This document shows positions 7,006-13,375 of a DNA stretch of 64,000 bases, in pieces. Each line of letters opens with the position of its first letter. Within the stretch, counting starts at the first letter, position 1. Position numbers and translations under genes: made by a program. Source of the DNA: Bacteroidales bacterium (lineage in GTDB: Bacteria; Bacteroidota; Bacteroidia; Bacteroidales; VadinHA17). The stretch lies in assembly GCA_036261255.1 (NCBI GenBank), contig DATALD010000035.1:683-64682 (forward strand), read 5' to 3'. The notes under the pieces are model-generated. The model ran no database searches and was not told the DNA's origin. It saw nothing but the letters and a program-made list of their open reading frames with translations.

Positions 7006-7335
7006 TCAGTTGTTTTTTTCGGCTTCGAGTATTTCGATTTTTTTGTTCAGTTCGATTATGTATAGGGTTAGTTCTTCAATTTTCTGCAGCATTTTTGTCT
7101 GCATCTCGCTAACACTCATTCCATCTGTCTGCATTTCATATGCTGATGCAACATCAGGAAGATGTTTGTTTTCTTCAATGTATTTCTCAACTTCAGCCAG
7201 TTCGGGGAGGTTGTATCCGGGATCGAAGACAAAATCGGCGCCGGAGGTGTTTACGACTATTTCGTCAGCGCGGATTTTACCAGAAACGTTTAACCTGTAG
7301 TTACCAGGATCTGTTGTTCCAATACCAACATTCCC
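7006..7335 (-). repeat. Copy 1 of the conserved 3' coding module of the fibre-like family
   Basis: Last 109 codons of P1, from GNVGIGTTDP to the stop. Clear nucleotide-level similarity to the other four copies. Confidence 0.85.
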
Positions 7336-7833
7336 ATCATCCGTTATTCTCAATCTTTCAGAGTACCCCCCCGTATGGAATGCAAAATATCCATTACGTG
7401 TATAGAATCTGGTGTTAACAGAAGCCTGTGTATTATATCTATCAATAAACTCAAAATAATTATCTGTCCCAGGATGATATTCCATACCTCCTCCAGAGGC
7501 ATATACATGAAATTTGGTATTTGGGGAGCTGGTACCTATCCCAACATTTCCATTCGACTGTATCGCGAATTTTATATCCTGATAATCACCTTTACTAACT
7601 ATCCAGTCCTGGAGAAGATTACCAAAAAACCAGTTATCACTACCATCAAGAAACTTTGTTTGTATTCCCTGTATAAAACCTCCTACGTTGGTGTTTCTCT
7701 GCAAAATCAGGTTTGGTGACCAATCTGCAATTCTAACTGGACCGGCCAGAGGATAGTCGTTATTCAATTGAGCAGCCAGGGCAGCAGGCAGGATCATAAA
7801 CAAAACGAGTAGGTATTTTTTCATATAAGTCAT
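7006..7833 (-). CDS. Secreted fibre-like paralog P1 (GNVGIGT repeats + conserved C-terminal coiled-coil module); function unknown
   Basis: 275 aa with a signal peptide. Two GNVGIGT(S/T)xP motifs. C-terminal IRADEIVVNTSGADFVFDPGYNLPELAEVEKYIEENKHLPDV...MQTKMLQKIEELTLYIIE is shared with four neighbours. Its start overlaps the P2 stop by 4 nt if M1 is used. Confidence 0.8.
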   Translation of the reverse strand: MTYMKKYLLVLFMILPAALAAQLNNDYPLAGPVRIADWSPNLILQRNTNVGGFIQGIQTKFLDGSDNWFFGNLLQDWIVSKGDYQDIKFAIQSNGNVGIGTSSPNTKFHVYASGGGMEYHPGTDNYFEFIDRYNTQASVNTRFYTRNGYFAFHTGGYSERLRITDDGNVGIGTTDPGNYRLNVSGKIRADEIVVNTSGADFVFDPGYNLPELAEVEKYIEENKHLPDVASAYEMQTDGMSVSEMQTKMLQKIEELTLYIIELNKKIEILEAEKNN

Positions 7834-8177
7834 GGATTAACCGGTTCGTATTCTTTCAATTTTTCTTCAAGAAGCTTTATTCTCTTTTCCTGATCGATTA
7901 TGTAAAGAGTCATTTCTTCCATTTTCTGCAGGAGCTTTGTCTGCATCTCGCTCACATTCATCCCTTCTGACTGCATTTCAGAGGCATGCGCAACATCAGG
8001 AAGGCGTCTGTTTTCTTTTATGAAGTTTTCAACTTCAGCCAGATCTGGGAGGTTGTATTCTGGATCGAAGACGAAATCGGCGCCGGAGGTGTTTACAATG
8101 ATTTCATTAGCACGGATATTACCGGAGACGTTTAGTTTATATACACCAGGATCAGAGGTTCCAATTCCAACATTGCC
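7830..8177 (-). repeat. Copy 2 of the conserved 3' module
   Basis: Last 115 codons of P2. Confidence 0.85.
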
Positions 8178-8978
8178 AACAGTGTTTATTCTGAGTCTCT
8201 CAGTCCCATTAGTACCAAGTGTTAGAAATCCTCCATCAACACTTCCTCCCCGATAAAAACTAATAAATCCATTATTACGATTGTCATAGAACTGTTGTGT
8301 TATTCTAAAAGTTTCACAATTAGCTGGTGAAGTTGAACCACTACTAAAAATCAATTTATTATCTTCGGAGCTTGTTGCAAGGATGGCTGCATCAGAATTT
8401 GGCCCATTATTTATATGGAGTTTTGTTATGGGTGTTGTTGTACCAATCCCCACCTTCCCATCATAATTCCATAATCCATTTCCGGGAAGATTAACAACAC
8501 CGGCAAAATTGTTCTGATAATCAACTGTAATAGTGTTGTTACCATAAACTTGTTCGTCAACAATAGACCAACCTTCAAACCATGCAGGTAATTCGGAAAA
8601 CCCACTTGCAAATACTCTTACATTGAATCGTTGAAAATATCCCCTTTCATCAATGAAAATAACTACTTTGCCTTCTTCTGTTGTAAGCTTGACAGTAGGT
8701 GTCCAACCACCCCAGGAGGATAGTTTTGGCGCATAGAAGATATTATCATATGTATAATAATTTAAGGTTAATCCAATTGAAGATTGACCCCCATAATTAT
8801 AACCTTCAAAAATTATAGTAGGCATCTGGCTTGAATTAATAAAAGGCAGGTTTGTTTTAATCTTAACGCCATATGAAGGTGTTCCATTATACGCATAACT
8901 TACCGGATTGTATACCTGTGAGAGGGAGATCGCATAAGAAATTTGAATTGCAATGAGGAATGAAATAATCTTTTTCAT
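7830..8978 (-). CDS. Secreted fibre-like paralog P2
   Basis: 382 aa with a signal peptide. Unique N-terminal ~170 aa, then GKVGIGTTTP and GNVGIGTSDP motifs and the shared C-terminal module. Confidence 0.8.
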   Translation of the reverse strand: MKKIISFLIAIQISYAISLSQVYNPVSYAYNGTPSYGVKIKTNLPFINSSQMPTIIFEGYNYGGQSSIGLTLNYYTYDNIFYAPKLSSWGGWTPTVKLTTEEGKVVIFIDERGYFQRFNVRVFASGFSELPAWFEGWSIVDEQVYGNNTITVDYQNNFAGVVNLPGNGLWNYDGKVGIGTTTPITKLHINNGPNSDAAILATSSEDNKLIFSSGSTSPANCETFRITQQFYDNRNNGFISFYRGGSVDGGFLTLGTNGTERLRINTVGNVGIGTSDPGVYKLNVSGNIRANEIIVNTSGADFVFDPEYNLPDLAEVENFIKENRRLPDVAHASEMQSEGMNVSEMQTKLLQKMEEMTLYIIDQEKRIKLLEEKLKEYEPVNP

Positions 8979-11884: not shown

Positions 11885-11968
11885 TGTATCAAAGATATAT
11901 TAGTTCTTTTTTGGAAATAATTTGCTACATAGAAAGCTTTCTTCAATTTGGTTTACTTATCTAATAAG

Positions 11969-12337
11969 TCAATTGTTAAGCATTTTTTTCAACTCCGCAA
12001 TTTCTTTTTCCTGTTTTTCATTCAACTCTTTCTGCTCCTGAATCATTTTATTCTGTTCGATAGAATACAAAATAAGTTCCTCAATCTTCTGCAATAGCTT
12101 TGTCTGCATTTCACTCACACTCATCCCATCTGTCTGCATTTCAGAGGCAGGTGGAACATCAGGGAGATGTTTGTTTTCTTCAATGTATTTTTCAACTTCA
12201 TCGAGTTCCGGGAGGTTGTATTCGGGGTCGAAGACGAAATCGGCGCCGGAGGTGTTTACTACTATTTCATTTGCACGTATTATTCCATTCACATCAAGTC
12301 TGGCAGAAGGATTGCTTGTGCCAATGCCAACATTCCC
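11969..12337 (-). repeat. Copy 5 of the conserved 3' module
   Basis: Last 122 codons of P5. Confidence 0.85.
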
Positions 12338-13375
12338 ATTACCTGCAATTTTTATCCTTTGTTGTCCCTCTGTATAAAATTCAAGACCATAGTAACCCGA
12401 TAATGCAACATTGTTGTAACCTATGCCACTTATGAGAGAAGTTCCATAATGAGCCACAGAGTTACCTGAAACATCAAATGCATCATTAATATTAAATCCT
12501 ATTTTTCTTGATGCAGAAATCCCTTCAAACAATCCATTCGCTGCATATATATCAGCATATGCGTCAGAAGATGAAATAAATTGGAAATTACCATTTCCCG
12601 TTTGAATTCTTTGTGTTCCCTGGACAGATCCAAGAATGAATGGAACCCCACTTTGGATTTTAATAGCACCATTCACGTCAAGCTTTTGTGAAGGGTTTTC
12701 TGTACCTATACCAACAGCCCCCGAACCTTCTCCTCCATTAATAATAGTATTTTTGTTTTTCCCATATTGAAAATATAAATCACCAACATCACCAGACTGC
12801 CAATCTTTGCCGTCAATGTGACGAACCTTCATCCAACCATTCCCTGAGCCGCCAACATTTAATAAGTATGGGCTACTACTCGCACCATCATTGAATATCG
12901 TCAGCTTAGAATCAGGGTTTGAAATTCCTATTCCAACATTTCCATTTGGAAGTATTCTCATTCTTTCAACAAGAGAATGGGCTTCATCAGCAGTTGTAGT
13001 ATGAAAGGTTAAGTAGCTTCCCCAATATGCATACAAATTGCTGTGGCTGCGAATCTCAGAATAATTACCTGTTGCATTTCCAAAATCACCATCGAATCTA
13101 AGTCCAACATAATGATATGATGACACATCCGGATCAATTGTTGAACCGTGTAAAATCAAAGCCGGAGCATCCATTACATTGTTGTAAATATGTAGCTTTG
13201 TATTTGGAGAATCCGTTCCAATTCCAATATTGTTACCACTTACAGTTGATCCAATTCCACTTAATCCTTCTGGAACATTAAGTACCTGTGACTGTGAAAA
13301 AAGACTTATTGGAGACACAAGTGCAAAAATATAAATCAGTGCATTGCGGCGAAAAAAAGAATGTTTAATCATCAA
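11969..13375 (-). CDS. Secreted fibre-like paralog P5
   Basis: 468 aa. N-terminus SLFSQSQVLNVPEGLSGIGSTVSGNNIGIGTDSP resembles P3. Motifs GNVGIGISNP, GAVGIGTENP and GNVGIGTSNP, plus the shared C-terminal module. Confidence 0.8.
   Translation of the reverse strand: MMIKHSFFRRNALIYIFALVSPISLFSQSQVLNVPEGLSGIGSTVSGNNIGIGTDSPNTKLHIYNNVMDAPALILHGSTIDPDVSSYHYVGLRFDGDFGNATGNYSEIRSHSNLYAYWGSYLTFHTTTADEAHSLVERMRILPNGNVGIGISNPDSKLTIFNDGASSSPYLLNVGGSGNGWMKVRHIDGKDWQSGDVGDLYFQYGKNKNTIINGGEGSGAVGIGTENPSQKLDVNGAIKIQSGVPFILGSVQGTQRIQTGNGNFQFISSSDAYADIYAANGLFEGISASRKIGFNINDAFDVSGNSVAHYGTSLISGIGYNNVALSGYYGLEFYTEGQQRIKIAGNGNVGIGTSNPSARLDVNGIIRANEIVVNTSGADFVFDPEYNLPELDEVEKYIEENKHLPDVPPASEMQTDGMSVSEMQTKLLQKIEELILYSIEQNKMIQEQKELNEKQEKEIAELKKMLNN

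Follow-up and report, generated by a model that had tools for sequence, protein, structure and literature searches.

The fibre proteins that offer the closest comparison for the genes described here are the mosaic adhesive trimer (MAT) proteins of Bdellovibrio bacteriovorus, in which capping loops edge intertwined trimeric beta-helix domains (Caulton et al. 2024, PMC10769870). MAT fibres are ~1,000 residues long and combine a constant N-terminal domain of ~130 residues with a variable C-terminal tip, which consists of an S74 domain or of adhesive folds; the published capping-loop consensus is V-G-G/N-pi-x-x-P-x-x-x-L, and in Bd3182 two capping loops stand 96 residues apart (PMC10769870). A second point of reference is the S74/ICA family (PF13884; structures 3GW6, 4UW8, 7DC3 and 8JOV), known from phage tail fibres, endosialidases and MyRF. 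The present analysis concerns a tandem array of five genes, P1 to P5, in a 64,000-nucleotide (nt) stretch of contig DATALD010000035.1 from a Bacteroidales metagenome-assembled genome (MAG), referred to below as the window. Sequence comparison and structure prediction support the view that the five products are fibre-like proteins of the same structural kind as MAT fibres and phage tail fibres, and all five end in an unnamed, family-specific C-terminal module that is presumably devoid of self-cleavage.

The five open reading frames all lie on the minus strand, at the positions given in a preliminary description of this DNA. P1 (7006-7833; 275 residues; identical to NCBI entry VHO50_04465) comprises, after a signal peptide, two beta-helix segments that each end in one capping loop (GIG at residues 98 and 170), and the module (residues 187-275; window positions 7009-7275). 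P2 (7830-8978; 382 residues; identical to VHO50_04470) has a signal peptide, two capping loops and the module (residues 288-382; 7833-8117), and its N-terminal region of ~150 residues is without a family match in a Pfam scan. The signal peptide of P3 (8987-10513; 508 residues) is followed by loops at residues 36, 46, (72), 294 and 400 and by the module (residues 417-508; 8990-9265). In P4 (10643-11884; 413 residues; identical to VHO50_04480) a signal peptide, three loops at residues 112, 207 and 298, thus spaced by 95 and 91 residues, and the module (residues 315-413; 10646-10942) are found. Lastly, P5 (11969-13375; 468 residues) contains a signal peptide, six GIG loops and the module (residues 366-468; 11972-12280) with the longest coiled-coil tail of the five; its start codon is TTG, and the matching NCBI gene call, VHO50_04485, starts one codon downstream. 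At least four more family members are encoded on other contigs of the same MAG.

The signal peptides attributed to all five proteins in the preliminary description were found again, being called heuristically from the sequence and not by a dedicated predictor. Each N-terminus reads as a basic n-region and a hydrophobic h-region followed by a glutamine, and inspection of the five N-termini revealed no lipobox cysteine. A glutamine directly after the hydrophobic stretch is typical of Bacteroidota substrates of signal peptidase I.

The capping-loop repeats connect these proteins with known fibres. When a profile of the five paralogs was compared with PDB sequences, only the B. bacteriovorus MAT fibres matched, with Bd2133 (8OND, E 7e-17) as the best match, followed by 8OML, 8OJN, 8ON4 and 8OL4. 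What aligns in these matches is the ER(L/M)RI..GNVGIGT..P...L.V.G loops, and the array repeats fit the published consensus. Tail-fibre families of PHROG match the same repeat regions (E 1e-8 to 3e-19) and nowhere else in the proteins. A full-length AlphaFold2 (AF2) monomer model of P1, built on 92 homologues and reaching a mean predicted local distance difference test (pLDDT) score of 84.5, was related by Foldseek to the MAT beta-helix domains (8ond, 1.2e-7; 8onc, 8e-5; probability 1.0). Thus, both sequence and predicted structure bear out the fibre-like character that had been suspected. Loose G-x-x-G-[IV]-G loops number 2 in P1, 2 in P2, 4-5 in P3, 3 in P4 and 6 in P5, with spacings mostly of 72-106 residues; the repeats themselves are therefore as first described, while their number per protein extends to 2-6 instead of the 2-4 originally counted. 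As to the variable N-terminal "head", the P1 model predicts that, at least in P1, it is made up of additional MAT-type beta-helix segments with capping loops at their borders and not of a separate globular domain. By homology to obligate trimers, the array proteins would be trimeric as well.

The constant part of the five proteins is their C-terminus. In the protein alignment ~60 columns are invariant, nearly all of them within the final ~110 residues, and at the DNA level the 3' module forms a five-copy direct repeat of 300 nt with 73-79% identity. A hidden Markov model (HMM) of the module scores the five reading frames at E 1e-39 to 1e-43, well past what chance would give, confirming a conserved unit in each. 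This unit of ~100 residues (~80-100) is placed directly after the final capping loop and has no match in Pfam, NCBIfam or PHROGs, in keeping with the earlier failure to name a family for it. An AF2 monomer model of the last 128 residues of P5, based on 100 sequences (pLDDT 92.5), predicts ~28 extended residues (IRAxEIVVNT.GADFVF.PEY.L) following the last capping loop, two short helices (51-61 and 70-76) within the stretch ..L.EVE.YI..N.HLP.IPSA.E.., and a long helix (80-127) that runs to the end and reads LLQKIEELTLY.IEQ..., with its hydrophobic residues in a heptad pattern. The layout of a short beta segment, a helical region and a terminal coiled coil, proposed at first from the letters of the sequence, is thus reproduced by the model. 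Across 228 family members the invariant or near-invariant residues of the module are D, F-V-F, Y, L, H-L-P, A, G and LLQK-EELTLY, and two subtypes, ADFVF and W.DYVF, can be told apart. A Foldseek search of the module model against PDB and BFVD returned no significant neighbour beyond the capping loop; hence neither profile nor structure searches placed the module in a well-characterised family.

The family defined by this module is very large. A profile search of 1.84 billion cluster representatives (clusters at 50% identity) yielded 24,749 proteins at E<=1e-30, and a word-index search with P1 matched over 6,574 clusters (90% identity); almost without exception these are annotated as "hypothetical protein" and have no precomputed Pfam domain. 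Among GTDB species representatives, one back-translated pattern occurred in more than 586 places, overwhelmingly in Bacteroidota (Flavobacterium, Pedobacter, Chitinophaga, Dysgonomonas, Paludibacter, Aquimarina, Algoriphagus and others), with a few MAGs assigned elsewhere. Genomic context and architecture were counted in 80 related loci holding 237 near-full-length family members. In every one of these 237 the module is C-terminal, with 2-52 residues behind it, and a hydrophobic N-terminus was recognised heuristically in 220 (93%). The median length in the 80 loci is 322 residues, and long members of 1,000-2,000 residues occur too. Tandem arrays are usual, comprising 12-13 genes in several Flavobacterium and Pedobacter loci (12 in L057) and reaching 17 genes in Arcticibacter (L043). 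A full-text literature search, itself incomplete in coverage, returned no paper on the module, the arrays or their linkage to RHS or pilus genes.

The divergence of the paralogs is revealing of the age of the array. Among P1-P5 the module core (80 codons) shows pairwise amino acid identities of 69-86%, with synonymous divergence (dS) of 0.6 to >3, near saturation, and a ratio of nonsynonymous to synonymous divergence (dN/dS) of 0.04-0.22, while the head regions share 25-38% identity. On these estimates the paralogs are old duplicates under strong purifying selection. Recent gene conversion or active diversification was rejected because synonymous sites are near saturation, and no sign of hypervariation or recent conversion was seen in the array; the "diversifying" repertoire put forward in the preliminary description therefore finds no support, whereas the mosaic nature of the heads does. 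More specifically, heads of the P1 type are found again in Pedobacter, Chryseobacterium, Flavobacterium and Marinifilum, on ADFVF and W.DYVF tails alike. Because head types recur across genera on different tails, the family is mosaic on an evolutionary time scale. A resemblance between P3 and P5 had also been noted; it holds for the first ~50 residues and for a 46-nt element upstream, and does not extend to the rest of the heads, which are 38% identical. The two copies of this element, both on the minus strand, lie 5' of P5 (13405-13450) and 5' of P3 (10532-10577) and are 89% identical. On the coding strand its core reads GGTAACAAAATG.GA.CATTTCCCATTAAACAATAA, ~25-70 nt 5' of P3 and P5, and it has no match in Rfam. 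The element may be a shared leader or an internal promoter.

Two further genes follow the array on the minus strand. The first (6534-7004), 1 nt after the P1 stop, encodes a small exported protein of 156 residues with one RHS/YD-like repeat and a type-A sorting domain for a type IX secretion system (T9SS; Por_Secre_tail 8.5e-10, TIGR04183 4.4e-10). The second (58-6498) encodes an SpvB/FG-GAP/RHS polymorphic toxin of 2146 residues, a TcB-TcC-like fusion with a signal peptide, whose C-terminal ~150 residues contain an HExxH-like motif (ARHELIHAFH) that suggests a metallopeptidase-type toxin domain. The apparent operon closes with this gene, and since it ends 57 nt from the window edge, any immunity gene would fall outside the view. 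Intergenic distances from the array through the RHS gene are -4, 8, 129, 84, 1 and 35 nt, the first value representing the 4-nt overlap of the P2 stop with the P1 start, and no terminator-like site was seen between the array genes, the small T9SS protein gene and the RHS gene. As judged from this spacing and the common strand, the five array genes apparently form a single operon with both.

The same association recurs in other genomes. RHS genes stand beside the array in ~29 of the 80 loci, the window being among them. The small T9SS protein was recognised as a conserved partner, placed between fibre genes and RHS gene, in 12 loci. The order array, small T9SS protein, SpvB-RHS gene of ~2,100 residues occurs in 11 loci. 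Homologues of the small protein (~145-165 residues) in L006, L012, L014, L017, L029, L031, L032 and L058 again consist of a single YD/RHS-like repeat (YTYDDNGNRESRV) and a T9SS type-A domain, and are encoded immediately 5' of SpvB-FG-GAP-RHS toxins of ~2,100 residues that have no T9SS domain of their own. The small protein could be a piggy-back adaptor coupling the RHS cocoon to the T9SS. In at least 12 loci the order is instead array, RHS_b (~1,000-1,200 residues; a single C-terminal RHS repeat in a Pfam scan of one representative), RHS_a (YD-repeat), by its arrangement a TcB-like/TcC-like pair; in Prevotella (L023) and Dysgonomonas (L073) fibre genes stand between RHS_b and RHS_a. RHS genes make up a small fraction of any genome. 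Their frequency beside the arrays, together with the fixed order and strand, therefore argues for a functional link.

The explanation favoured here, with moderate confidence in the whole, is an operon of trimeric MAT- and phage-like fibres that bear a non-proteolytic module in the position of S74 and are tied to toxin delivery. According to this explanation the proteins would be exported by Sec, and the mature protein would stack one or more intertwining beta-helix segments, each of ~70-130 residues and closed by a capping loop xVGIGTxxPxxxLxV, which would assemble into homotrimeric beta-helix fibres. The long helix of the module would most likely form a coiled coil that brings the three chains into register and lets the beta-helix fold from the C-terminus, as with S74; unlike S74, the module would be retained on the fibre. 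The exceptional conservation of the module suggests that it may also be a handle by which all the fibres engage one partner, for instance a factor for export, chaperoning or anchoring. The variable segments of the beta-helix would offer different binding surfaces, the array being a standing repertoire of binding fibres. Because the array is apparently co-transcribed with the RHS toxin and the T9SS-tagged small YD protein, these fibres probably serve adhesion or target recognition for contact-dependent toxin delivery.

Several observations weigh against this explanation. Known trimerisation or chaperone domains give no significant match to the module, whether by structure or by profile, and its proposed role rests for that reason on position and layout. 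The five proteins show no evident means of crossing the outer membrane, having neither a T9SS C-terminal domain (TIGR04183/PF18962, type A or B, by Pfam and NCBIfam) nor a lipobox nor a beta-barrel anchor. Module subtype (ADFVF or W.DYVF) was found to be unrelated to genomic context, a result that gives no support for partner-specific docking. The module need not be terminal, as in rare cases (P0154, P0168, P0177 and P0276) two or three complete head-plus-module units follow one another in frame in a single polypeptide; these may be array genes fused in the manner of polyproteins, or else artefacts of assembly. An RHS gene is lacking nearby in ~50 of the 80 loci, and the RHS link is thus not the whole story. 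Finally, in ~9 of the 80 loci, including L066, L007, L013, L040, L061, L068, L074 and L079, the array lies inside a cluster resembling a type IV pilus or type II secretion system (T2SS), with genes for a type IV pilin, an A24 prepilin peptidase, a GspE/PilB ATPase, a secretin, a PilN-like protein, pseudopilins and GspF.

These pilus-embedded arrays lend themselves to another interpretation, in which the module is chiefly a cell-proximal handle, for docking or secretion, that serves the type IV pilus/T2SS-like system, or the T9SS via the small adaptor, the fibres are cargo or tip adhesins with the N-terminal part distal, and the RHS genes are merely frequent neighbours in variable islands. The constant end is indeed the C-terminus, and its invariant D, H-L-P and K-x-E-E residues, to judge from their position in the monomer model, would be exposed and go beyond what a coiled coil needs. 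A possible interplay between fibres and type IV pili has been raised for MAT proteins as well (PMC10769870). However, phmmer searches with cluster representatives detected no pilus or T2SS gene in the 64-kb window, most of the 80 loci have no such cluster within 10 kb, and the independence of module subtype and context speaks against a dedicated partner. Moreover, no linear C-terminal signal is known to be common to T2SS substrates. A docking handle of this kind is accordingly judged unlikely.

Some details of the pilus-like loci deserve mention. In L007, L013 and L040 an RHS gene follows the pilus-embedded array. Four loci of Flavobacteriia and Sphingobacteriia (L066, 1487-19656; L040, 1771-8529; L061; and L007, 16302-19986) hold a complete cluster with the array inserted mid-cluster, accompanied by conserved genes of no assigned function for proteins of ~160 and ~426 residues, the latter with a weak bactofilin-like match. 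A family member with a P1-type head, P0054, has an extra N-terminal region (residues 120-174) that is matched by Pfam Shufflon_N (E 9e-7, narrowly over the gathering score), the constant region of PilV shufflon proteins. These shufflon proteins are tip adhesins of type IV pili.

A more ambitious form of the toxin-delivery explanation would make the arrays the targeting component of a Bacteroidota-specific Rhs/Tc-like delivery system. Here the module would dock the fibres on the SpvB/FG-GAP/RHS cocoon, on the small YD adaptor or, in other lineages, on a pilus-like filament, interchangeable fibres in the place that TcA has in tc operons would choose the target cells, and the module would be a novel type of assembly-and-docking domain replacing the S74 chaperone. 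In this full form the proposal is speculative and rather doubtful.

It is improbable, in turn, that the module is a highly diverged true S74/ICA domain, cleaved after trimer assembly by other catalytic residues or by a host protease and leaving a mature fibre that ends at the last capping loop. The position invites the comparison. The module sits where S74 would, immediately behind the final capping loop of the beta-helical stalk, and its helices likewise end in a coiled coil; in L012 an S74-terminated fibre gene at the equivalent place adjoins the same small T9SS protein gene and RHS gene, and UniRef names one member, P0057, "Peptidase S74 domain-containing". Sequence comparison gives a different picture. 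The S-D-x-x-x-K motif of the Ser-Lys dyad is absent, as first reported; the equivalent stretch reads G-x-I-R-A-(D/N)-E-I-V-V-N-T (more generally (I/V)RA(D/N)E(I/V)), without a conserved Ser or Lys. The pattern SD.R.K occurs in none of the five array proteins (0/5), and PF13884 is not detected in them even at E<=1. An hhalign comparison of the module with an S74 alignment, made from PDB chains, Bacteroidota S74 proteins and the S74-ended fibre of L012, matched the capping loop only (probability 94%, 27 columns). Homology was rejected on removal of this loop, which lowered the probability to 23% in local mode, over the coiled coil only, and to 0.4% in global mode. Structure comparison is no more than suggestive: the best ICA match of the module in PDB, 7dc3, is non-significant (E 2.0, probability 0.16), a monomer model being a poor query for an intertwined trimer, and ICA/S74 proteins in BFVD reach E 0.06-0.3 over up to 158 aligned columns, again non-significant and obtained with a monomer query. 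The weak tail of Foldseek matches is enriched in S74/ICA proteins, none of the matches being significant. Of the defining features of S74 that gave a clear outcome, position alone held for the module, which is best regarded as analogous to S74 in position and architecture and not as a detectable S74 member. Three S74 fibres from metagenome Bacteroidota (P0286, P0289 and P0290) carry a T9SS sorting domain C-terminal to the S74 domain; in these, S74 self-cleavage would detach the secretion tag too.

Structural tail fibres, whether of a prophage, of a tailocin or of an extracellular contractile injection system, are a barely credible identity for the gene products. PHROG tail-fibre families do match the repeats, and 4 of 2.9 million viral contigs of IMG/VR carry a family member (2 of the 4 with real phage genes), as against the more than 586 places in cellular genomes. 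The module has no tblastn match in 50,697 phage genomes (INPHARED), and the phage-borne copies are encoded 3' of an endolysin gene and not in the tail module. Sec-type signal peptides, which are not expected on virion proteins, occur on these copies and on all five array proteins. A Pfam scan of the 10 kb flanking the array on each side (~21-64 kb lying outside the scan) recognised no phage, sheath or baseplate gene, only cellular neighbours (the RHS toxin, the T9SS-tagged protein, an ECF sigma factor, an outer-membrane barrel, ThiF and a peptidase S51). The module is essentially cellular. In two IMG/VR contigs, L085 (1-9227) and L083 (1964-11219), a short signal-peptide-bearing member stands just after the endolysin gene, and in L085 a reverse transcriptase gene adjoins the gene of a 1284-residue tail fibre in an arrangement like that of a diversity-generating retroelement.

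Candidate regulators of the array lie on its other side. Divergent from it, on the plus strand, are a gene for an extracytoplasmic function (ECF) sigma factor (13887-14381; Sigma70_r2/r4_2) and, overlapping it, a gene for a membrane protein of 360 residues (14378-15460), which from its position would be the anti-sigma factor. Among the related loci, LytTR regulators are frequent neighbours of the array, and genes for OmpH/Skp-like periplasmic chaperones follow the array in L036, L040 and L061.

Beyond what the preliminary description had recognised, the present analysis adds the operon link to a T9SS-tagged small protein and an SpvB-FG-GAP-RHS toxin, and it shows how very large the family is. 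In Bacteroidota, Rhs toxins that bear SpvB and beta-propeller domains are common, and for those without TcA or a type VI secretion system (T6SS) spike this fibre family is a concrete candidate for the recognition step. A very large, unannotated family of fibres is repeatedly wired into Rhs operons and pilus or secretion clusters. The module represents a newly defined C-terminal unit at the usual position of the S74 chaperone, and with a domain model for it, tens of thousands of "hypothetical proteins" would receive a new annotation.

Like the module, S74/ICA domains are conserved C-terminal elements placed directly after a capping loop, helix-rich, ending in a coiled coil and held constant on variable fibres; the module differs from them in having no Ser-Lys dyad, Pfam match, profile-profile similarity or significant fold match, in being shorter (~80-100 residues), in presumably not cleaving itself and in being nearly absent from phages. 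The Tc (ABC) toxins resemble the operon in another respect. Their receptor-binding TcA gene stands upstream in tc operons, the position taken here by the fibre genes, and the downstream SpvB/FG-GAP/RHS protein is TcB-TcC-like. In contrast to Tc toxins, there is no TcA homologue, the upstream products are small beta-helix fibres in place of a pentameric translocator, and it is synteny alone that suggests the functional link. The YadA-like trimeric autotransporter adhesins likewise have a variable N-terminal binding part, a coiled coil, a constant C-terminus and a repertoire of many paralogs; the array proteins differ in that no YadA-type beta-barrel anchor is found by Pfam and in their predicted C-terminus, which is helical throughout and charged.

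Among known systems the MAT family comes closest (8OND, 8ONC, 8OJN, 8OML and 8OL4; PMC10769870). Both families have signal peptides, beta-helix segments and the same capping-loop motif, and both are multi-paralog mosaics with one constant and one variable end. The beta-rich MAT-type domain of ~130 residues that directly follows the signal peptide has no counterpart here, as judged by the absence of any common N-terminal domain in the five-paralog alignment, in which conservation is limited to the loops and the C-terminus, and P3 and P5 begin directly with capping loops. The array proteins are also far shorter (275-508 versus ~1,000 residues), and they are encoded in tandem arrays linked to RHS-toxin or pilus-like genes in non-predatory Bacteroidota. 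Above all, the polarity of the MAT fibres is reversed in this family, in which the C-terminus is the constant end and the N-terminus varies.

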